Origin: an uncultured Collinsella sp.
GTDB lineage: Bacteria > Actinomycetota > Coriobacteriia > Coriobacteriales > Coriobacteriaceae
DNA length: 64,000 bases
Direction of reading: 5' to 3'
Assembly (NCBI GenBank): GCA_902475375.1
Contig: CABRZC010000002.1
Span: 3,024-67,023 of the forward strand
In this document: positions 1,995 through 44,895 of the stretch, piece by piece
How the letters are laid out: every line of letters starts with the position of its first letter
Numbering within the stretch: position 1 is the stretch's first letter
Program-made: the position numbers and the translations under genes
Notes under the pieces: generated by a model
The model's input: only the letters and a program-made list of their open reading frames with translations
Databases searched by the model: none
What the model was told of the DNA's origin: nothing

Positions 1995-2782
1995 GCACCA
2001 TGCAAACGCGCCTCGGCGATGCCCGCAATTGGATAGAAAACCACCGCGCACAGGCCCTTGCGGTCCTGATATTGCTGGCGGCAATCGCTCTTATCATCGG
2101 CTTGTCGCTCTCGTGGTTTGTGGGCAGCAAAAGTCTGTCTACGGTGGGCAAGATCCAAACGCCCGCGCAGCTTAAGATCATGGGTCCCAACCAGACAAGC
2201 ATTGAGCCCGTCGAGATTTCGTATGACGAGTCGCGCGGCGATGTTAAAAACATAGACGGCACCGTGACCATTCGTCGCGCGTTTTGTGTGCAGAGCGACA
2301 ATGGCGATCCCGCTGCCGGCGGTCAAGCGTTTGAGCTGCAGGTTGCCAACACAACGAATATCACGGGGCTGACGATCAACGTATATCACGTGACGGTCAA
2401 TAATCCGAACGATAAAAACGGCACCGTGGTCGGCCTCGACGGGCTCAACAATCCGTATTCGTGGAGTAAGGGCAAACTAATTTCGTTCGACTTTATCAAT
2501 AGGGATGAGACAAACGGCCTGGCTAAAGAGCTCGCCAGCAATGATCCAACGTACGGTACTTATAAGGACGTCCAGAAAAACGCCCGTCCGCTGTATCGGT
2601 ACCACGTGTTCCAAAAAGACGATCTAGACGGTTGGAATGGCACGAAAGCCAACGATGCCACCAACTTTATTGTTGAGTGCACGTGGAACGCGGATGGCGT
2701 AACCGTGGGTGGTGCCAAGGTCTCAAACGTCAAAGAGACCGACATGGTCTACCTAATCGCTCGCGGCACGAGCGGCAACTAA
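1991..2782 (+). CDS. exported/membrane-anchored protein, candidate SipW-type signal anchor (P2)
   Basis: 263 codons. The SD sequence AGGAGGG lies about 10 nt upstream. One N-terminal helix ends in LSLSWFVGSKS. The start overlaps the P1 stop, suggesting translational coupling. Confidence 0.65.
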   Translation: MSTMQTRLGDARNWIENHRAQALAVLILLAAIALIIGLSLSWFVGSKSLSTVGKIQTPAQLKIMGPNQTSIEPVEISYDESRGDVKNIDGTVTIRRAFCVQSDNGDPAAGGQAFELQVANTTNITGLTINVYHVTVNNPNDKNGTVVGLDGLNNPYSWSKGKLISFDFINRDETNGLAKELASNDPTYGTYKDVQKNARPLYRYHVFQKDDLDGWNGTKANDATNFIVECTWNADGVTVGGAKVSNVKETDMVYLIARGTSGN

Positions 2783-2805
2783 TAGCAGGAAGGGAGGGGC
2801 GCCAG

Positions 2806-3780
2806 ATGAGGAAAGACAAGAACGCACAAAATGAAATCGCAAGGCCTGCCGGAAAGCACTTTGCACAGGTTGATGATCATGCGGCGAAGTCTGCCTTGGC
2901 GGAGCCTGCTGCCCCTAATTCCAAAGTGCGCAAGCGCCTATGGGCGGTTGCGGTGCTGCTATGCGCCGTCGCGATTGTGGCGGGTACCCACCTTACTTAC
3001 ACGGCCTTTTTGGCGGGCGACTTCCTTAAGTCGGTCGCTGTCTCGGGCACGTCACAGGCGCTGTTTGCCTCGGACATGCTTACGGGCTACACGAATGAGA
3101 CGCTGAATGACGAGGGTATTGCCGTCCGAAGCGTCATCGCCGACACGAGTGGGGAAAAGTGCTCTTTTACCTTTCGCATTTACAACCATCTGCTGGGCGA
3201 CAAGAACAAGGTCAACGACAAGGACGTTAACGCGACGCTGAGCGTGAAGGCGACGGGAACGACAGATTGGAGCATAAGCGGTTCGCCCGCGCTGACGGCG
3301 GGCGGCACGGTCGGCCTTTCCTTCCCTGCCAACAAGGCAACCATGTATACCTATAAGGTTACGTTTTCCAAGGCGGACCTCAACAAAGCATCTTTCACCG
3401 TTAAGGTCCAGGTCGGCTCCAATAGCCCTGGCACCAACCTTAAATGGCTCGCCGCCAAGATTGCGCCCGCCGAACGTGCAGAGGTGACGGCTTCGGGCGT
3501 TTCGGGCGAGTGGGTCGATAAGAACTCGGATATCAACGCTTTCGACGCTTACAACTATCGCGTGACCGTTACGGGCGCGCCAACAAAAATCAAGCTTACA
3601 TGGGGCGACAAGGTTGAGCTTGACCCATTTTTGACGACGAATCATTCCGACGCGACCCTTGATGGAAGGTCGGTTACGTTCACCATGGATCCCGGGTCGG
3701 AGATTATTACCTTTTACCGTGCGACGGATACCGCGCCCGGCAGCTGGGATGACATCGGTGTTACGTGCAGGGCTGCGTAG
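2806..3780 (+). CDS. exported/membrane-anchored protein, candidate SipW-type signal anchor (P3)
   Basis: I chose the ATG at 2806 because AAGGGAGGGG lies 6-15 nt upstream. The track ORF starts at 2677, inside P2. The N-terminus reads KRLWAVAVLLCAVAIVAGTHLTYTAFLAGD, close to the GT.AYF.D junction of SipW-cognate signals. Confidence 0.65.
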   Translation: MRKDKNAQNEIARPAGKHFAQVDDHAAKSALAEPAAPNSKVRKRLWAVAVLLCAVAIVAGTHLTYTAFLAGDFLKSVAVSGTSQALFASDMLTGYTNETLNDEGIAVRSVIADTSGEKCSFTFRIYNHLLGDKNKVNDKDVNATLSVKATGTTDWSISGSPALTAGGTVGLSFPANKATMYTYKVTFSKADLNKASFTVKVQVGSNSPGTNLKWLAAKIAPAERAEVTASGVSGEWVDKNSDINAFDAYNYRVTVTGAPTKIKLTWGDKVELDPFLTTNHSDATLDGRSVTFTMDPGSEIITFYRATDTAPGSWDDIGVTCRAA

Positions 3781-35474: not shown

Positions 35475-36158
35475 ATGTCCGATTCGAGCGACAGTTCCAA
35501 GCCGCGACCCAAGACCGCGGCCGTTCCGCACTACACGGTGGGCGAGGAGATCATGAACTCCGTCACCCATGGTGTCGGCTGCCTGCTGGGTATCGCGGGC
35601 CTGGTGCTCCTGATCGTATTCGCTGCCCTGCGCGGCGGAGGCCCGGCCCACATGGCCGCGGCGATTGTCTATGGCGTCAGCATTATCCTCGAATACCTAG
35701 CCTCCACGCTCTACCACGCGATTCAGCCCGCGCGCGCCAAGCGCGTGTTTCGCATCATCGACCACAGCTGCATCTACCTGCTCATAGCCGGCAGCTATAC
35801 GCCGTTTTGCCTCATCACGCTCGCAAACGACGGCGGCGCCGTACTGTTCTTTGCCGTATGGGCCATCGCCATTATCGGCATCGCCCTCGAGTGCTTTATG
35901 CGCGAGCGTCAACCGCATTGGGTAAGTGGCTTGGTCTACCTGCTGATGGGCTGGCTCGTTGTCTTTAAGCTGCCCGAGCTCGTGTCGTTGCTCAGCCCCG
36001 TGGCACTTGCCCTGCTCGCCGTCGGCGGCGTGTGCTACACCGCGGGCGTGCCGTTCTATATCGCCAAAAACGTGCGCTATCTGCACAGCGTGTTTCACCT
36101 GTGGGTGCTTGCCGGCAGCATCTTTCAGTTCATGGCGGTGATCCTCTTCGTAATCTAG
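35475..36158 (+). CDS. hemolysin III / PAQR family membrane protein
   Basis: ATG 35475 follows GGAGGA. The family motifs are present (EEIMNSVTHGVG, DHSCIYLLIAGSYTP, HLWVLAGS) along with 7 TM helices. Confidence 0.85.
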   Translation: MSDSSDSSKPRPKTAAVPHYTVGEEIMNSVTHGVGCLLGIAGLVLLIVFAALRGGGPAHMAAAIVYGVSIILEYLASTLYHAIQPARAKRVFRIIDHSCIYLLIAGSYTPFCLITLANDGGAVLFFAVWAIAIIGIALECFMRERQPHWVSGLVYLLMGWLVVFKLPELVSLLSPVALALLAVGGVCYTAGVPFYIAKNVRYLHSVFHLWVLAGSIFQFMAVILFVI

Positions 36159-36267
36159 CGACCATGCCTGCGCGCCCGCGTCCTCGTTTGGGCGCCGGCG
36201 CAATTGCCGTATCCGTCATCAACGTTTTACCCTGACGCCCGAATCTTGGAGGTTCGAGAAACTCCCG

Positions 36268-37641
36268 ATGGACATAACCATCTCCCTTATCACCACCCTC
36301 GTTTTGACCCTCATCAACGGCTACTTCTCTATGTCCGAGATGGCGCTCACCACGGCTAAGCGCGCCGTGTTGGAGCACGATGCCGAGGAAGGCGACAAGC
36401 GCGCCGAGCGCGCCATTAAGCTGGCCGCCGACTCCGACCAGCTGCTCGCCACCATCCAGGTCGCCATCACGCTCGTGGGCTTCGCCTCGTCCGCCGTCGC
36501 CTCGACGAGCCTGTCCGACCCGCTTGCCACGTGGCTCATGAGCTTTGGCATCGCGCCGCTTTCCGCCATCGCGCGCGGCCTGGCGCCGGTCATCATCACC
36601 GTCGCCGTCGCCTTTGTGTCCATCGTGGTTGGCGAGCTTGTGCCCAAGCGCATCGGCCTGGCTAACGCCGAAGGCGTATCCAAGCAGGTCGTGGGACCGC
36701 TCTCCGTGTTCCAAAAGATCGCCCGCCCGCTCGTGTGGCTGACCGGTGCCTGCTCCGACGGCCTGGCCCGTATCCTGCGCATCAAGAGCGCCGACGACCG
36801 CCAAAACGTCTCGGAGGAAGAGATCAAATACATGGTCTCGGAGCAGGACGATTTGCTCGACGAGGAAAAGCGCATGATACACGAGATCTTCGACCTGGGA
36901 GACACCGTTGCCCGCGAGGTCATGGTGCCGCGCGTGGACACCACCATGTGCGAGGACGACGAGACGGTCGCCGACGTGCTGTCCGCCATGCGCCAGACCG
37001 GCTTTAGCCGCATCCCCGTCTATCACGAGGATCCCGACAACGTCGCCGGCATCGCGCACATCAAGGACCTGATTCAGCCTTCGCTCGACGGCAAGGGCGA
37101 CCAGCCCATCGCCGACTTTTTGCGCGACGCCACCTTTGTGCCCGACACCAAGGACATCCTGCCGCTGCTGTCCGAGATGCAGACCTCGCACGACCAGATC
37201 GTAGTGGTCGTGGACGAGTACGGTGGCACGGCCGGCATCATCACCATCGAGGACATCGTCGAGGAGATCGTGGGCGAGATCGAGGACGAGTTCGACCCCG
37301 ACAACAAGTACCTCACGCGCCTTTCGCGCCGCGAGTGGCTCGTCGATGGGCGTTTTTCGTGCGATGACGCGATTGAGCTTGGTTGGCCGCTCGAGGAAAG
37401 CGATGATTATGAGACCATCGCCGGCTGGATTTTGGAGCTTTGCGACTCGGTGCCCGACATCGGAGAGGTGTTTGAGGTTGCGGGGTACAAGTTTAAGGTG
37501 CAGTCGATGCGTGGCCAGCGCATCTCGCTCATTCGCGTGATTGCTCCGGCCGAAACCGATAAGAAGGATTCCGAGCCCTCGGCAGACGAGCCGACGGCGT
37601 CTGGTGCGGGCTCTGCGGACCCGCACGACGGCGACGAGTAG
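36268..37641 (+). CDS. CNNM/CorC/TlyC-family protein (DUF21-CBS pair-CorC_HlyC)
   Basis: An N-terminal 4-TM DUF21 domain (NGYFSMSEMAL), a CBS pair, a C-terminal CorC_HlyC domain (ETIAGWILE...GYKFKVQSMRGQRI), and an acidic tail. Confidence 0.85.
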   Translation: MDITISLITTLVLTLINGYFSMSEMALTTAKRAVLEHDAEEGDKRAERAIKLAADSDQLLATIQVAITLVGFASSAVASTSLSDPLATWLMSFGIAPLSAIARGLAPVIITVAVAFVSIVVGELVPKRIGLANAEGVSKQVVGPLSVFQKIARPLVWLTGACSDGLARILRIKSADDRQNVSEEEIKYMVSEQDDLLDEEKRMIHEIFDLGDTVAREVMVPRVDTTMCEDDETVADVLSAMRQTGFSRIPVYHEDPDNVAGIAHIKDLIQPSLDGKGDQPIADFLRDATFVPDTKDILPLLSEMQTSHDQIVVVVDEYGGTAGIITIEDIVEEIVGEIEDEFDPDNKYLTRLSRREWLVDGRFSCDDAIELGWPLEESDDYETIAGWILELCDSVPDIGEVFEVAGYKFKVQSMRGQRISLIRVIAPAETDKKDSEPSADEPTASGAGSADPHDGDE

Positions 37642-38641: not shown

Positions 38642-39037
38642 ATGAACATGGGTAAGACTTTCAACTTTATCTCGGGTGCGCTCTTCGGTGCTGCCGCCGG
38701 CGCCATCATCGGCGTTGCCCTGGCTCCGCGCTCGGGCGCCGAGACCCGCGCCATGGCTGCCGATATCGCCAATGACGCCTGGGATAACATGCGCGACACC
38801 TACGAGCACGGTGCCGAGGAGGCCCGCGCCGCGGTCAACGATTTTGGCCCGATGGTCGACGCCAAGACCGATGACCTGCGTGCCAAGGTTGACCTTGCCC
38901 GCGAGCGCATGGACCAGCTGCGCGAGCAGCTCAACGACGCCATCTCGGGCGGTAACGTGACGCCCGCCGCCGATGTCGTGGTTGAGAACGCCGTCGAGGC
39001 CGACACCGAGGCCGCGGAGCCTTCGACCGAGGCATAA
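38642..39037 (+). CDS. YtxH-domain protein
   Basis: The N-terminal helix (FISGALFGAAAGAIIGVALAPRSGAETR) is typical of YtxH. The rest is helical and charged. Confidence 0.7.
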   Translation: MNMGKTFNFISGALFGAAAGAIIGVALAPRSGAETRAMAADIANDAWDNMRDTYEHGAEEARAAVNDFGPMVDAKTDDLRAKVDLARERMDQLREQLNDAISGGNVTPAADVVVENAVEADTEAAEPSTEA

Positions 39038-39792
39038 TGCGCGCCGGGGATTTTGTCGGCGCCAAGATCTATCGCAAGCCTACCGAGGATAAGCGCACCA
39101 AAAAAGACGGCACGCCGCGCAGTCCTAAAAAGCTCGGCAAGATTCACTTTCCGGTCTTTACCCCGGGCGGCACGCGCGTGGTGGGCTTTATGGTTCGCCA
39201 GTCCGATATCGCGGGTATGATCGAGCGTCCCGACCGATTTGTGGCGCTCGATGCCATTGGCGTCTACGAGGGCGCCATCGCGGTTGACGACGTCAAGGGC
39301 ACCTACGATACCGCTGCGGCCAAGCGCCTCGACATCAACCTGGATGATTGCATTATCTGGGTTGGCATGGACGTGCGCACGGAGTCGGGCGATGTCGTGG
39401 GCTATTGCTCGGATGTGGAGTTCAAGCCGCGTTCGGGTGTCGTGCAGACGTTCTACGTGACCGCCGGCACTGCCTCGAGTGTGCTGGTGGGCGATACGCA
39501 GATGCCGCCCACGATGCTGCGCGGCTATGCGGACGGCGCGATGATCGTTTCGGACGAGGTCAAGTCGCTCGGGTATTCGGGCGGCGCCGCTGCAAAGGTT
39601 GCCGAGGCAAGCGTCGTGGTGGGCGATAAGGTCAAGAAGGGCGCCAAAGTGCTCGATGACAAGGGATCGGTCGCCGTGGACAAGGGCAGCCGCGCGCTGG
39701 GCAAGCAGCTCGGCAAGACGCGCGGTATGTTCAAGGCCTTTAAGGACGAATACCAAAAGGCGAGCGGGGGCTCGTCGAAAGCTAGCAAATAG
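39037..39792 (+). CDS. PRC-barrel-like protein
   Basis: The start overlaps the previous stop (TAATG). The N-terminus shows a PRC-barrel-like pattern (GDFVGAKIY...GKIHFPVF...VVGFMV). Assignment is tentative. Confidence 0.45.
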   Translation: MRAGDFVGAKIYRKPTEDKRTKKDGTPRSPKKLGKIHFPVFTPGGTRVVGFMVRQSDIAGMIERPDRFVALDAIGVYEGAIAVDDVKGTYDTAAAKRLDINLDDCIIWVGMDVRTESGDVVGYCSDVEFKPRSGVVQTFYVTAGTASSVLVGDTQMPPTMLRGYADGAMIVSDEVKSLGYSGGAAAKVAEASVVVGDKVKKGAKVLDDKGSVAVDKGSRALGKQLGKTRGMFKAFKDEYQKASGGSSKASK

Positions 39793-39864
39793 CGACGTAC
39801 CAAATGATGGGAGGCAAGCCGGAGACCTGTTGCTCCGGCTTGCTGCGTTTATGGGGGAGGGCAC

Positions 39865-41271
39865 ATGCGCCAAAACGGATCATATTCACACGGACGTCCG
39901 GGCGCGCGTCCGACGGCGCGCCGCGATCTGGGGCAGCTGCCCGGCGGTCAGCGCAAGCGTCACCGTAAGCCCGGCGCGATGTATCTCAACCATAGCCGCG
40001 GCTTTAGCGACCGCAGCGCTCGCATCGGCAACAGCCGCACGCCCCGTCGTTCGTCTCGCCTGCCCTATGCGCTCATCGCCGTGGGTTGCGCGCTTGTGTT
40101 GTTTATCGCTGCCGTCGTGGGCTACGTCAACCGCAGCGTGGATGTCGTCCTCAACGGCCAGGAGACTGCGGTGCGCGTCGGCTCTACGCTGCAAAATCTC
40201 ATCGACGACCAGGAACTGACCGATACCTACGACGCCGGGGACCTGCTGGCTGTTGACGACAGCGTGCTGACTCGCCATGGCGGCGAAAAGCTGTCGGTAA
40301 AAGTGGACGGCAAGCGCATAAAACAGGGCAAGTGGAAAAGCCGCGAGCTTACGGGCGGCGAGAAGGTGACGGTCAAAGACGGCCGCGACACGTATGAGAA
40401 GCATGAGGTCCAGGCGACGGTTATCGAGCCCAAGCTCAAGGTCGAGGGCACGGGTGCCATCGAGTACGTTAAGACGTGGGGTATCCAGGGTCGCTCCGAG
40501 GTGTGGGTCGGCGAGCAGTCGGGCAAGACGCAGGACCGCGGCGAGGTCGTGCCCGCCACCGATTGCGTGGTCGAGTGCGCGAGCGTGGCGCCCAAGGGCA
40601 ACGAAAAGTACGTGGCGCTGACGTTTGATGAGGGCCCGAGCGGAGCGACCAAGCAGATCTTGCAGGTGCTCAAGGAAAAGGGCGTCACCGCGACGTTCTT
40701 CCTGTCGGGCGATGCGGCCGAGGCCTCGCCCGCCACGGCCAAGGCGATTGTCGATGCCGGCTGCGAGGTCGGCTCCAACAGTTACAGCGACGAATCGCTC
40801 AAGGGCAAGGATCGCGATGCGGTGCGCGAACAGGTTTCGAAGGGCACCGAGGCGATCAAGTCCGCGACCGGAACGTCGACGATGCTTTTGCGTGCTCCCT
40901 ACGCAGCCTTTGACGAGCAAAACTGGATTGATGCGATGGACCTGGTGTCTGCCGTGGTCTCGTGGAATATCGATTCGGGCGACTGGCTGCTCAACGGTGC
41001 CGACGAGCAGGTCTCGACGGTGCTCGATTCGGTGACGCCGGGCAACATTGTGTTGCTGACCGATAACGATGAATGCGCCGAGCAGACGCTCGAGGCGCTG
41101 CCGCAGATTATCGACGGGCTTATTGCCGACGGCTACAAAATCGTGACATTGAGTGATCTGGTCAAGACGGATACATCGCTGAGCAAAAAGCTCACCTCGC
41201 TGACGAAGGCCGCCATGCCCAAAAACGCCGTGTTCCCCCAGCTCGCCGAAGATGACGACACCACAGAATAG
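39865..41271 (+). CDS. membrane-anchored polysaccharide deacetylase (NodB domain)
   Basis: An Arg-rich N-terminus, one TM helix (LPYALIAVGCALVLFIAAVV), a DUF348-like segment, and a NodB motif region (YVALTFDEGPSG, ATFFLSGD). The start is uncertain; an alternative Met lies at 39979. Confidence 0.75.
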   Translation: MRQNGSYSHGRPGARPTARRDLGQLPGGQRKRHRKPGAMYLNHSRGFSDRSARIGNSRTPRRSSRLPYALIAVGCALVLFIAAVVGYVNRSVDVVLNGQETAVRVGSTLQNLIDDQELTDTYDAGDLLAVDDSVLTRHGGEKLSVKVDGKRIKQGKWKSRELTGGEKVTVKDGRDTYEKHEVQATVIEPKLKVEGTGAIEYVKTWGIQGRSEVWVGEQSGKTQDRGEVVPATDCVVECASVAPKGNEKYVALTFDEGPSGATKQILQVLKEKGVTATFFLSGDAAEASPATAKAIVDAGCEVGSNSYSDESLKGKDRDAVREQVSKGTEAIKSATGTSTMLLRAPYAAFDEQNWIDAMDLVSAVVSWNIDSGDWLLNGADEQVSTVLDSVTPGNIVLLTDNDECAEQTLEALPQIIDGLIADGYKIVTLSDLVKTDTSLSKKLTSLTKAAMPKNAVFPQLAEDDDTTE

Positions 41272-41297
41272 TCATGTAAGAACGTCCCCAATGACTA
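41269..41297. repeat. GGGGAC-box hairpin unit (inverted orientation), overlapping the deacetylase stop codon
   Basis: TAGTCAT-GTAAGAACGTCCCCA-ATGACTA. Its reverse complement is about 90% identical to the unit at 32624-32652. Confidence 0.75.
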
Positions 41298-41591
41298 TGT
41301 CACGGATGCGTCAGCGTTTGGTATGCCTGCGATGTGCGGCGCATAAATTTGGCGCCACGGCGCGATGCTGATGCTATAGTTACTGCGGATAACAAGGGTC
41401 AAGAGAAAGGTTGCAGGTGAAATCCAAACCTCGACCATACAGTCGATGACCCCATGCAAGTGCTTCTTGCGCATGCACGGGGTGTGAGCGCCGAGCGGTG
41501 TGCCGCCCGCGCATGCGTATACATATCTAAAAGTCCACGGATGGCGTGCCGGCATGGCCGCAGTCCGAAGGGATAATGATGGGGAGCACCA

Positions 41592-43436
41592 GTGAATTAT
41601 CTGAGTGAGATGCTCAAGCTGCCGGTCTTGGACGTCGATGGCGAAAAGCTCGGCGTTGTGAACGATTTTGGCATTGCTACCGGCGAAGTTTTTCCGCACG
41701 TGACGTCGCTCGCGTTCCGCGGACCCGGCAAGACGCCATTTATGATCAGCTGGCGCAAATGGGTCGACCGTATCGACGAGACGGGCGTGCACCTTAAGTC
41801 GCCGGCCACCGAAATCCGTTTTTCGTACCTGCAGCCGACCGAACTTTTGCTCGCGCGCGACGTGCTCAACAAGCAGATTGTCGACACGCAGGGCATGAAG
41901 GTCGTGCGCGTCAACGACATCAAGTTTTCCATGTCGGGCGAAAATCAGCTGCGTCTGCTGGGTGCCGAAGTTGGCGCCCGTGGTCTGCTGCGCGCGATCA
42001 GCCCCGCACTCGAACATGTCGTCGAGAGCTTTATGAAGCACCTGGGCAAACCGCTCGGTGAGGACATCATCGCCTGGTCCTACATGGACCTGCTCGACCG
42101 TTCGACTAAAAACATCCAGCTTTCGGTGTCGCACAAGACGCTTGGCGAGCTGCACCCTGCTGACATCGCCGACATTATCGAGCAGCTCGACCCGCGCCTG
42201 CGTGCGCAGGTGTTCGCGCAGCTCGACACCGCCCAGGCCGCCGAGGCCATCTCGGAGTTCGACGACGACGAGCTTATGACCGAGATGCTCGAGGGCCTGT
42301 CCGATACGGACGCATCGTCGATGCTGGCCATGATGGACCCGGACGACGCCGCCGACCTGATCGATGAGCTCGATTACGAGAAGGCCGAGAAGCTGTTGCG
42401 CCTGATGGGCGTTCAGGAGGAGAAGGCGATTCGTAACCTGCTGGGCTATGAGGACAACACTGCCGGTCGCATCATGACCTCGGAGTTTGTCTCCCTGCCC
42501 GCCACGGCGACGGTCGGTGACGCTATCGAGGCGATCCGCAAGCTCGATGAGGACTTCGAGAGCGTCTACTATGTCTATACCGAGGACCCGAGCGGCATGC
42601 TCACCGGCGTCCTTTCGCTGCGCACGCTCATCGTGGCCGACCGCGATGCCACGCTGGGCCAGCTGGCCTATCGCGACCTGGTGTATGTGTCGCCCGACGA
42701 TGACCAGGAAGACGTAACGGACGAGATGACCAAGTACGACCTGGTCGCCATCCCCGTTTGCGACGAGAACCGTCACATCTTGGGTATCGTGACCTTTGAC
42801 GACGCCATGGACGTTATCGCCGAGGAGCACCAGGAGGACCTGCAGATCGCAGGCGTCGGTTCGGGCGATAGCGCGTCCGACGACTCGACGAATGTGCTCA
42901 GCTGGTTTGTGCATCGCCAGTACTGGGTTGTCGTGTGGGGTATTGCCTCGTGCATCATGGCAACAGTGCTGGGAACGGCGCTGGGCTCTGCGCATCTGGT
43001 GGTGTTCCCCATGTGCGCCATGCCGCTCGTGCTGCTGGCTGCCTCGCGTATGGTGTCGTTCGTCAAGAACTACTTTCTGGAGTACGACGGCCATGACGAT
43101 GAGCCCAAGCCGTATCTGGGGTTCTTCTTCCAGAGCACGGGCATGGGCCTGATCCTGTCGCTCGTGACCTACCTGTGCGCCCAGCTGGTGCGCACGGCCG
43201 CATTCCCCGACGCATCCATGTTTGAGGAACAGCTCTTTACCGGCTGCTTTAACATTGCGGCCATCGTTTGTCTGATTGGCAACATGAGCGCCGTGATTTA
43301 CCTGATGGTGCTGTTCTGGCGTGACGAGCACGACCTCAATACGTCGGGTACCGCCATGAACGTCATTGCCGTCATGATCTCGTGCGTGGCGTACTGCATC
43401 GCCGCGGTGCTGCTCACCATGTCGGTCATGGGGTAG
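41592..43436 (+). CDS. MgtE-N/CBS-pair protein with N-terminal PRC-barrel-like domain and non-canonical C-terminal membrane domain
   Basis: GTG start after GGGGAG. The MgtE_N region (LHPADIADIIEQLD, DPDDAADLIDELD) and a CBS pair are clear. The last ~170 aa have 4-5 TM helices, but I cannot find the MgtE pore motifs (PWL..., GGN.G.Q). Confidence 0.75.
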   Translation: MNYLSEMLKLPVLDVDGEKLGVVNDFGIATGEVFPHVTSLAFRGPGKTPFMISWRKWVDRIDETGVHLKSPATEIRFSYLQPTELLLARDVLNKQIVDTQGMKVVRVNDIKFSMSGENQLRLLGAEVGARGLLRAISPALEHVVESFMKHLGKPLGEDIIAWSYMDLLDRSTKNIQLSVSHKTLGELHPADIADIIEQLDPRLRAQVFAQLDTAQAAEAISEFDDDELMTEMLEGLSDTDASSMLAMMDPDDAADLIDELDYEKAEKLLRLMGVQEEKAIRNLLGYEDNTAGRIMTSEFVSLPATATVGDAIEAIRKLDEDFESVYYVYTEDPSGMLTGVLSLRTLIVADRDATLGQLAYRDLVYVSPDDDQEDVTDEMTKYDLVAIPVCDENRHILGIVTFDDAMDVIAEEHQEDLQIAGVGSGDSASDDSTNVLSWFVHRQYWVVVWGIASCIMATVLGTALGSAHLVVFPMCAMPLVLLAASRMVSFVKNYFLEYDGHDDEPKPYLGFFFQSTGMGLILSLVTYLCAQLVRTAAFPDASMFEEQLFTGCFNIAAIVCLIGNMSAVIYLMVLFWRDEHDLNTSGTAMNVIAVMISCVAYCIAAVLLTMSVMG

Positions 43437-43444
43437 GTGGTCGC

Positions 43445-44707
43445 GTGCAAAACACGAAGCAAAAGGCGAGCACCAAGCAAAAGCTGACCATCGCGGCCAT
43501 CTTTGGCGCCATGGGCCCTGGCCTTCTGGCGGCGCTTTCGGGTAATGACGCCGGCGGCATCGCCACGTATTCCAGCGCCGGTGCCAGCTATGGCTACAAG
43601 ATGCTGTGGATGCTTCCCGTCATGACCGTGCTGCTTATCGTGACGCAGGAGACTGCGGCGCGTTGCGGCTGCGTCACAGGCAAGGGCCTGGCGTCGCTCA
43701 TCCGCGAGCGCTTTGGCGTGCGCAGGAGCGTGCTGGCCATGGCGGCGCTGCTGATCGCCAACACGGCCGTTACCATCTCGGAGTTTGCGGGTATCGCGAG
43801 CGGCCTTGCCCTCTTTGGCGTGCCGGCGAGCATCTCGGTGCCGCTGGTGGCACTGCTGGTTTGGATGCTTACCATGTCGGGTAGCTTCCAGCGCATCGAG
43901 AAGATTCTGCTGCTGGTGAGCTGCGTGTTTGTGACCTACATTGTCGCTGCATTTATGGCTGGTCCCAGCTGGGGCGAGGTGGCGGTCGACTTGGTTGTGC
44001 CCAACATCCAAAATGACCCCAGCTACGTGTCGCTTGTGGTCGCAACGATCGGTACCACCATTGCGCCGTGGATGATCTTCTTGGCGCAGAACAACGTGGT
44101 CGATAAGAACGCGGGCGAGGACGATATCGTGCTGCAGCGTATCGACACCGTGAGCGGCTCGATCGCCGCCGATGTCATCGCCGGTTTTATTATCATCACG
44201 ACCGGTACGGTACTGTTCCCCGCGGGCATTCAGATCAGCGATGCTGCCGACGCCGCCCGCGCGTTGGAGCCCATCGCGGGCCAGTGGTCCACGGTGCTGT
44301 TTGCCTCGGGCCTGGTCGCGGCGAGCTTCTTGGCCGCCTGCGTGCTGCCGGGTGTTACATCCAGCGCTATCTGCGAGGCATTTGGCTGGGAGCGCGGCGC
44401 CGATCGCAGCTGGGACGAGGCCCCGGTCTACCGCGGCATCATTACGGCCATCATTGGCATCTCTGCCGTGCTGGTGCTCATGCCCGGTGTCGACCTGTTC
44501 CAGATTATGATGACCTCGCAGGTCATCAACGGCGTGCTTTTGCCCGTGGTTCTGGTGTTCCAGGTGCTTATTGCCGCCGATCGACACATTATGGGCGCCA
44601 ACCGCAACGGCCGCGTGTGGAATGTGCTCACTTGGGCGACTATCGGTGTAATTACGGTGCTGACGGTCGTTATGTTTGTGCTGCAAGCGATGGGCTACAG
44701 CGCGTAG
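43445..44707 (+). CDS. NRAMP/SLC11-family transporter with NRMT-like (Mg2+-type) site substitutions
   Basis: GTG 43445 lies 9 nt after the upstream stop. The TM1 motif reads GNDAGGIAT (canonical DPGN), with DAGG at 43547-43558. The TM6 motif reads GTTIAPWMIF (canonical A..MPH), with A-P-W at 44063-44071. Confidence 0.8.
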   Translation: MQNTKQKASTKQKLTIAAIFGAMGPGLLAALSGNDAGGIATYSSAGASYGYKMLWMLPVMTVLLIVTQETAARCGCVTGKGLASLIRERFGVRRSVLAMAALLIANTAVTISEFAGIASGLALFGVPASISVPLVALLVWMLTMSGSFQRIEKILLLVSCVFVTYIVAAFMAGPSWGEVAVDLVVPNIQNDPSYVSLVVATIGTTIAPWMIFLAQNNVVDKNAGEDDIVLQRIDTVSGSIAADVIAGFIIITTGTVLFPAGIQISDAADAARALEPIAGQWSTVLFASGLVAASFLAACVLPGVTSSAICEAFGWERGADRSWDEAPVYRGIITAIIGISAVLVLMPGVDLFQIMMTSQVINGVLLPVVLVFQVLIAADRHIMGANRNGRVWNVLTWATIGVITVLTVVMFVLQAMGYSA

Positions 44708-44724: not shown

Positions 44725-44760
44725 AAACAGGCCGTCGCCATGGGCTGCGGCCTGTTTTTT
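44725..44760. terminator. bidirectional rho-independent terminator
   Basis: AAACAGGCCG-13 nt-CGGCCTGTTT followed by further T residues. It lies between convergent genes. Confidence 0.8.
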
Positions 44761-44895
44761 GCCCACGGCCTCTCGGAATCGGTTCGAAAAGAGCAACCTT
44801 GGGGCGTTTGCTGCGGGTGTGGGGCATGGAAACGACGCTCGGGGCGGCGAGGAACTCAGAATTCGGCCGCGGGAGGGCATTCATCGGCCGCGTCA

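Follow-up and report, generated by a model that had tools for sequence, protein, structure and literature searches.

An MgtE-like protein without the MgtE pore motifs is encoded next to an NRMT-type NRAMP transporter in Collinsella

What does a protein built like the Mg2+ channel MgtE, and lacking the pore motifs of that channel, do beside an NRAMP transporter? The question is raised by a two-gene operon in a 64,000-nucleotide (nt) stretch of DNA from an uncultured Collinsella sp. (contig CABRZC010000002.1, positions 3,024 to 67,023). This whole stretch is called the window in the following, and coordinates refer to it unless a locus name precedes them. Both genes, and all features of the operon given below, lie on the plus strand. 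Gene 1 (41592-43436; 614 amino acids (aa), GTG start, TAG stop at 43434-43436) encodes a protein that appears to be derived from MgtE and that we refer to as the partner. Gene 2 (43445-44707; 420 aa, GTG start) encodes an SLC11/NRAMP protein of the NRMT type and is a predicted Mg2+ importer. This layout, with 9 nt from the last base of the gene 1 TAG to the GTG of gene 2, agrees in every particular with a first-pass annotation made from the letters alone. We lean towards the reading that gene 2 imports Mg2+ and that the gene 1 product is a membrane-anchored, non-conducting, MgtE-derived Mg2+ sensor that feeds back on the importer; for gene 1, sensing or regulation is the role that we find most plausible.

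Gene 2 matches the Pfam family Nramp (PF01566) with an E-value of 3.2e-88 over model positions 1-356 of 357. Among all PDB sequences, the best match is EleNRMT of Eggerthella lenta (7qia; E = 1.1e-148, 57% identity over the full length), followed by the next entry at 1.3e-30 and by DraNramp/MntH at about 1e-23, a ranking that compares scores and is not a formal tree. NRMTs are defined by the binding-site motif DxxG-TxxA/T, which replaces DPGN-AxxM (Ramanadane et al. 2022, PMC8806188). In gene 2, the metal-site motif of transmembrane helix (TM) 1 is N-D-A-G-G (43544-43558; G33-N-D-A-G-G38), with DxxG in place of DPGN, and that of TM6 is G-T-T-I-A-P-W (44051-44071; G203-W209), with TxxA and no Met, so that both fit the NRMT consensus. 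The first-pass annotation had called gene 2 NRMT-like, and this is borne out by the DAGG and TTIAPW motifs and by E-values of 1e-148 against EleNRMT and of 1e-30 or worse against Mn2+/Fe2+ NRAMPs. Gene 2 thus encodes an NRMT-type NRAMP, and its product would transport Mg2+. Transport by NRMTs is H+-independent (PMC9606685). In the work of Shin et al. 2014 (PLoS Genet, PMC4072509), one NRAMP of the same clade, from Acidobacterium capsulatum, acted as a transporter of Mn2+.

From the N- to the C-terminus, the gene 1 product consists of PRC barrels, an MgtE_N domain, a pair of CBS domains, a plug helix, and a pore-less membrane domain of five helices. The PRC-barrel region (41592-42101; aa 1-170) contains one clear Pfam match to PRC (aa 2-61, E = 4e-9 to 9e-8) and a second, weaker stretch, and AlphaFold2 confidence is low over this region. 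Such an N-terminus is absent from canonical MgtE and is common to the soluble and one-helix relatives of gene 1 described below. It is followed by the MgtE_N domain (42150-42458; aa 187-289, Pfam E = 2.4e-24) and by the CBS pair with the plug helix (42468-42848; aa 293-419), in which the two CBS domains occupy about aa 295-410 (Pfam E = 5.8e-18). Structures of MgtE cytosolic domains match gene 1 in phmmer at 5e-40 and 3e-38, and the top Foldseek match of the full gene 1 model is full-length MgtE (2yvx, E = 1e-20), with the whole 442-residue target spanned.

The cytosolic Mg2+ sites of Thermus thermophilus MgtE (TtMgtE) are formed by E258 (Mg2), D259 (Mg3), D91/D247 (Mg4), D226/D250 (Mg5), D95 (Mg6), and E59 (Mg7) (Maruyama et al. 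2018, PMC5882242). Residue mapping places E59, D91, and D95 at E218, D251, and D255 in the MgtE_N domain of gene 1, D226, D247, and D250 at D383, D404, and D407 in the CBS pair, and the plug-helix residues E258 and D259 at E415 and D416, which means that 8/8 site residues are acidic in gene 1. Among 36 five-helix family members, the equivalents of D91, D247, and E258 are kept in 36/36 and that of D259 in 35/36, and the other sites are mostly acidic. This retention is at least equal to that in ten canonical MgtEs. The plug-helix pair E258/D259, which in MgtE is required for the Mg2+-induced change of the whole molecule (PMC5882242), is kept in the five-helix form and lost or absent in soluble partners. 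By these residues, gene 1 appears to keep an intact MgtE-type Mg2+ sensor module and would bind Mg2+ with it.

The five-helix membrane domain (42894-43433; aa 435-614) contains neither GGNxGxQ nor the pore Asp of MgtE. Hydropathy and AlphaFold2 agree on the helices (aa 435-464, 467-497, 508-537, 544-579, and 586-613), and the membrane part is modelled with a predicted local distance difference test (pLDDT) score of 83-94 in the full model and, when modelled alone, with a pLDDT of 81 and a predicted TM-score (pTM) of 0.79. The GGNxGxQ columns in TM2 read AASRMVS in gene 1, and the Asp432 column in TM5 holds Val. In relatives, A(D/N)Dxxx(Y/H) is found in the GGNxGxQ columns and a hydrophobic TM5 stretch at Asp432. 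The membrane domain also has two conserved acidic cytoplasmic loops, FLEYDxxDDExKPYLGF between TM2 and TM3 and LFWRDEHDLNTSG between TM4 and TM5. We found no Pfam match to the MgtE membrane domain PF01769 in full gene 1, nor in the isolated C-terminal 190 aa at E ≤ 10, and the NCBIfam model TIGR00400 (mgtE) scored 218.9 bits, below its cutoff of 232.75, and aligned at model positions 19-322 of 450 only. Because the pore motifs are absent and PF01769 does not match, gene 1 is not an ordinary MgtE and has lost the pore motifs of the channel. The first-pass annotation had described gene 1 as holding the cytoplasmic sensing parts of MgtE on a membrane region without its pore motifs, and both halves of this description stand: PRC, MgtE_N, and the CBS pair are found by Pfam with the eight site residues acidic, and where an ordinary MgtE would align with its pore Asp and GGN, the motifs are replaced in gene 1.

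Relatives of gene 1 take three forms, soluble, one-helix, and five-helix, all with an N-terminal PRC region. The soluble form (414-421 aa) comprises PRC, MgtE_N, and CBS without a hydrophobic segment. It is found in several phyla, beside NRMT-type NRAMPs on plasmids from Alicyclobacillus fastidiosus, Pseudarthrobacter defluvii, and Serratia marcescens. The one-helix form (450 aa, Eggerthellaceae) is 56% identical to gene 1, has a single strongly hydrophobic C-terminal helix, and is encoded 3-4 nt 5' of an NRAMP that is ~90% identical to the EleNRMT construct (L102:3145-5916 and L103:3144-5796). The five-helix form (about 600-640 aa) was detected in Coriobacteriales (Collinsella, Enorma, Atopobium fossor, Atopobiaceae, and metagenome-assembled genomes). 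A metagenome scan added 80 further loci, of which 31 are five-helix, 36 one-helix, and about 12 soluble.

The pairing seen in the window proved to be conserved. In 80/80 Collinsella loci the partner has a same-strand Nramp neighbour, and among the metagenome loci with enough downstream DNA, a same-strand NRAMP gene follows the partner in 73/75 (28/28 five-helix, 35/35 one-helix, and 10/12 soluble). Partner and NRAMP genes are a few nt apart or overlap, and the xDAGG motif is present in all NRAMPs of these metagenome loci. Of the two exceptions, one (L174) holds a five-helix copy disrupted by frameshifts, with an Nramp gene ~0.5 kb downstream; partner and NRAMP are both in several pieces of open reading frame (ORF) there (L174:4001-7221), which points either to pseudogenisation or to poor assembly quality. 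In Pseudarthrobacter (L099:2137-5571) and on the Serratia IncHI2 plasmid (L100:3426-6138), the order is the opposite of the usual one, with the NRAMP first and the partner second; the Pseudarthrobacter NRAMP is unusually long (562 aa) and preceded by an M-box riboswitch. Apparent fusions of the two genes were rejected. The 967-aa partner-Nramp "fusion" P0014 is one sequence from one contig and, since the two genes of the window are read in different frames and their ORFs overlap, was taken for an artefact of a frameshift or of assembly, and the 853-855-aa "Nramp" ORFs in L175 and L180 are a product of the first-start ORF rule in high-GC DNA. Two further single-contig predictions join the partner to MMPL/RND or MATE domains (P0026 and P0028).

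Given that the partner has 0, 1, or 5 membrane helices depending on the lineage, ion conduction cannot be what the family as a whole has conserved. A neighbor-joining (NJ) tree of the cytosolic domains nests the one-helix forms among the five-helix forms, with the favored split at 29/100 versus 1 and 3; five-helix monophyly was recovered in 3/100 bootstraps and canonical MgtE is not monophyletic, so that the support is too weak to order the events. The tree weakly suggests that five helices are ancestral within Coriobacteriia.

Two contigs show the partner without an NRAMP. The first, L081 (a Logan SRR21517852 contig), carries a partial M-box (1-158) followed by P0184 (361-2211), a distant partner of the five-helix form, and, 23 nt after it, a CorA-family gene with the GMN signature (2234-3178) in place of the NRAMP. 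The neighbourhood is the same as elsewhere (5-formyltetrahydrofolate (5-FTHF) cyclo-ligase and PRC protein), and the arrangement looks like an in-situ swap of transporter type. In the second (L087:1907-4362), the partner P0165 (610 aa) has no adjacent transporter, and the 5-FTHF cyclo-ligase gene, which normally follows the NRAMP, directly follows the partner and starts at its stop codon. Both arrangements are rare, with one contig each, and CorA was found beside the partner in 0/80 metagenome loci. The CorA pairing and the transporter-less case suggest that the role of the partner is tied to Mg2+ uptake generally and not strictly to the NRAMP fold.

Pairing with two unrelated folds, NRMT and CorA, fits a role that is independent of the transporter, and the partner might accordingly be a buffer for Mg2+ (or Mn2+), a metallochaperone, or an assembly factor for the Mg2+ transporter made with it, with no gating involved. 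"Metal chaperone activity" was given as an alternative by Shin et al. 2014 (PMC4072509), and the many acidic sites together with the loops EYDxxDDE and WRDEHD could simply bind cations. We consider this unlikely, because the MgtE module is a conformational switch of millimolar affinity, ill-suited to an ion that is free at millimolar concentration (PMC5882242 and established knowledge), and because the retention of the plug-helix residues E258/D259 in the five-helix form points to signalling rather than storage.

The origin of the membrane domain bears on how gene 1 arose. Comparison with MgtE profiles indicates that the domain is very probably a degenerate, strongly diverged MgtE membrane domain and not a foreign one. 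In less-diverged family members the homology is clear: a hidden Markov model (HMM) of canonical full-length MgtE runs through all five helices in P0167 (HMM positions 10-435 of 442 = aa 171-595) and reaches HMM position 406 in Atopobium fossor P0311 and 401 in P0204. Motifs pair up along the HMM alignment, with RxxW in TM1, (L/I)MPLVL versus F(I/M)P(L/I)(L/V) in TM2, and RDxxVG versus KExxVG in TM3. In gene 1 itself, the TIGR00400 alignment extends into TM2, and the plug helix and TM1 are spaced exactly as in MgtE. When a family alignment of 36 sequences was set against the membrane domains of ten canonical MgtEs from plasmid mgtE genes, hhalign aligned 167 columns colinearly across the five helices (P = 9.4e-4, score 28.3, probability 22%). 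Reversed controls scored 13-14.5, and 33 block-permuted controls had a mean of 20.4, a standard deviation of 2.6, and a maximum of 27.9, close to the real 28.3. A Foldseek search with the isolated membrane domain gave no significant match, and the MgtE TM structures 4u9l/4u9n were still the best at full coverage (ranks 2, 4, and 5; TM-score 0.51-0.54, probability 0.95-0.97, E = 0.24-0.32). The "non-canonical membrane domain" of the first-pass annotation is therefore right as to the missing pore motifs and probably wrong where it implies a foreign domain, since the HMM and hhalign alignments point to a diverged MgtE domain.

Some of these results would also be expected if the five helices were unrelated to MgtE, a lineage-specific anchor added to a soluble PRC-MgtE_N-CBS protein, with the likeness due to chance or composition. 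Soluble partners do occur in several phyla, the Foldseek E-values of 0.24-0.32 are not significant, and the hhalign probability of 22% goes with a best permuted control of 27.9 against 28.3. In addition, when 1.84 billion representative proteins were searched with a profile of the five-helix domain, the matches came to only 81 clusters, and canonical MgtE was not among them. So small a number marks the five-helix form as a narrow, lineage-restricted variant; as an argument against homology, the lack of MgtE in this search was set aside, being outweighed by the full-length HMM alignments of less-diverged members. An unrelated anchor is quite unlikely given that the canonical MgtE HMM is continuous and colinear from the cytosolic domain through TM1-TM5 in those members, with matching motifs, that TIGR00400 reaches TM2 of gene 1 with the identical plug helix-TM1 spacing, that only the form with a membrane domain has kept the Mg2/Mg3 residues of the plug helix, and that the NJ tree, with its weak support, nests one-helix among five-helix forms.

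It is very unlikely that gene 1 is a working, divergent MgtE channel or transporter with a different pore chemistry that provides a second uptake route parallel to the NRMT: the complete MgtE layout with five helices at MgtE-like spacing, the purifying selection on the membrane domain, the two acidic residues (ADD or AND) at the GGN position of TM2 in several relatives, the one relative without an adjacent transporter (L087), and a public annotation that often reads "magnesium transporter" would fit such a channel, but PF01769 does not match even at E ≤ 10, GGNxGxQ and Asp432 are absent, TM5 of gene 1 is fully hydrophobic, one- and zero-helix family members stay linked to NRMT genes, which argues that the conserved role is not conduction, and the A. 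capsulatum partner alone gave no Mg2+ growth rescue (Shin et al. 2014, PMC4072509, Fig. S6 legend).

In the favored reading, that of a sensor feeding back on the importer, the gene 2 product would take up hydrated Mg2+ (and Mn2+) without coupling to protons. Gene 1 would descend from a full-length MgtE that gained PRC barrels, kept the N/CBS/plug module, and lost the pore motifs, and its product would sit beside the transporter in the membrane as a sensor subunit that does not conduct ions. With rising cytosolic Mg2+, the ion would bridge the acidic sites of the plug helix and those where the N and CBS domains face each other, and the module would compact as in the closed state of MgtE. The compaction may then be relayed to the transporter via the PRC barrels and/or the membrane domain and slow import, and a fall in Mg2+ would release this brake.

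Control by a riboswitch was considered for the same operon. Using Rfam, we detected M-boxes directly 5' of the partner operons of Alicyclobacillus (L098), Pseudarthrobacter (L099), and two five-helix loci (L082 and L085), as well as the partial M-box, cut by the contig end, that precedes the L081 partner. A model built from the four complete M-boxes found one more in L105. The partner operons of some relatives therefore appear to be under Mg2+ riboswitch control. The leader and promoter region of the Collinsella operon (41275-41591, 317 nt) has no M-box. Rfam gave nothing at the gathering threshold anywhere in the window, nor any Magnesium match at E ≤ 10 in 41200-41700, and the model from the four complete relatives found no match in the window; with both searches empty, M-box control of the Collinsella operon was ruled out. 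As no M-box precedes this operon, protein-level feedback would be left as the sole Mg2+-specific control seen at the locus. The leader has a predicted fold of -131 kcal/mol (z = -3.2 versus shuffles). Over its whole length it is 0.91 identical among 79 Collinsella loci, and in a conserved block (41395-41454) the value rises to 0.97-0.996, versus 0.82 at the third codon positions of gene 1. The block, which contains a perfect 5-6-5 palindrome (TCGACCATACAGTCGA, 41431-41446), could be an operator or an undescribed leader element.

Several observations weigh against feedback by the partner. Co-expression of the A. capsulatum partner with its NRAMP, which is Mn2+-transporter-like, left Mg2+ rescue unchanged, and both Clostridium NrmTs complemented without a partner (Shin et al. 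2014, PMC4072509). Purified EleNRMT also transports Mg2+ without a partner (PMC8806188), and together with the Clostridium NrmTs this indicates that the partner is not needed for activity. The presence downstream of CorA, an unrelated fold with its own Mg2+ sensor, in one lineage, and of no transporter in another, argues against a transporter-specific physical interface. As for descent from MgtE, the canonical MgtE HMM alignment ends at TM1 for gene 1 itself, and the gene 1 domain taken alone is weak evidence of homology (Foldseek E = 0.24, hhalign probability 22%).

A more specific proposal, which we put forward only tentatively, is that the five-helix protein is a "fossil" intermediate between a channel and a regulatory subunit. 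A pore-less MgtE paralogue would here gate the NRMT (or CorA) in trans, via an intramembrane complex and according to cytosolic Mg2+, and the one-helix and soluble partners would be later stages of reduction.

The gene pair and the regulatory idea are already known, and the pairing is not, as the first-pass annotation had it, undescribed. Shin et al. 2014 (PMC4072509) noted that most NrmT genes adjoin a gene with homology to MgtE's N-terminal cytoplasmic domain, named these "mgtE-nramp operons", found many of them to be co-transcribed under M-box riboswitches, and speculated on a role of the fragment in "cytoplasmic feedback regulation of transport" or, alternatively, as a metal chaperone. Full-text literature searches found no later work on the MgtE-like NrmT partner. 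Our locus resembles these operons in having an NRMT-clade gene immediately next to an MgtE N/CBS homologue, and several of the relatives found here have an M-box, as do many of the published examples. The published partner, however, is small and confined to the cytoplasmic domain, whereas gene 1 has 614 aa and a five-helix pore-less domain, and the Collinsella operon lacks an M-box. Neither the PRC barrels nor the one-helix Eggerthellaceae form is mentioned in Shin et al. 2014 (PMC4072509). EleNRMT (7qia, PMC8806188) comes from a host of the same class, Coriobacteriia, and shares 57% identity and the DxxG/TxxA motifs with gene 2, but it was studied alone, and the partner in its Eggerthellaceae relatives has one C-terminal helix where that of Collinsella has five.

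Compared with the MgtE channel (T. thermophilus, 2yvx/2zy9; TM domain 4u9l), gene 1 has the N domain, CBS pair, plug, and five TMs in the same order and spacing, and the counterparts of E59, D91, D95, D226, D247, D250, E258, and D259 are all acidic. It differs from MgtE in its additional PRC N-terminus of ~170 aa, in the replacement of GGNxGxQ and Asp432, and in the absence of PF01769. Regulation of a Mg2+ transporter by a CBS pair that responds to Mg2+ or nucleotides is also known from CorB/CNNM and CorC. There, the CBS-pair module that controls the transporter is fused in cis to the transporting domain, whereas here it belongs to a separate polypeptide, encoded beside a transporter with an unrelated fold. 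In the searchable literature we found no description of the five-helix pseudo-channel, of the one-helix form beside the EleNRMT clade, of the PRC barrels common to the partners, or of the CorA swap.

Both genes are real and under purifying selection, the membrane domain of gene 1 included. Across the 79 Collinsella loci, the third codon position is the most variable in gene 1 (identity 0.978/0.998/0.824 at positions 1/2/3), and the membrane part alone gives 0.980/0.996/0.803, which shows that both halves of gene 1 are maintained by selection. The nearest relatives of both proteins are from Collinsella (Coriobacteriaceae), and a cluster 98% identical to gene 1, formed at the 90% identity level, holds 20,892 sequences. 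A scan of genome contigs with the NRMT alignment found 80 loci with a 98-100% identical NRMT, all Collinsella or Coriobacteriaceae; these are near-identical Collinsella loci only, in a genus that GTDB splits finely, and carry no taxonomic breadth. A Shine-Dalgarno-like sequence (GGGGTAGGTGG) precedes gene 2 and overlaps the gene 1 stop codon, which suggests translational coupling of gene 2. Directly 3' of gene 2 lies a terminator-like stem-loop with a T-run (44734-44765, plus strand).

The upstream neighbour of the operon is a polysaccharide-deacetylase gene and the downstream neighbour a convergent acyltransferase gene. Synteny around the operon is kept across Coriobacteriia (39037-41271 in the window; loci L081, L082, and L084), with a PRC-barrel protein and the polysaccharide deacetylase on one side and, in relatives, the 5-FTHF cyclo-ligase on the other. 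The window ORF at 39037-39792 has no Pfam match at 1e-3. About 4 kb 5' of the operon, a CNNM/CorB-type gene (36154-37641, plus strand) encodes a CNNM TM domain, a CBS pair, and CorC_HlyC. The CNNM/CorB family is generally tied to Mg2+ export, and a putative exporter and importer would thus be close neighbours.

NRMTs are the fourth class of bacterial Mg2+ importers. They are not proton-coupled, which raises the question of how cells keep Mg2+ import through them in check, and the MgtE-like gene beside them has been known since 2014. The series from soluble through one-helix to five-helix forms, together with the retained Mg2+ sites, offers concrete, testable constructs and point mutants. The structurally characterised EleNRMT clade has a membrane-anchored partner of its own, and if the five-helix protein were indeed an intermediate between channel and regulatory subunit, the published EleNRMT structures and kinetics would describe half of a native regulated machine. 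The locus clearly illustrates the conversion of a channel into a likely regulatory subunit; its genus, Collinsella, is very abundant in the human gut.

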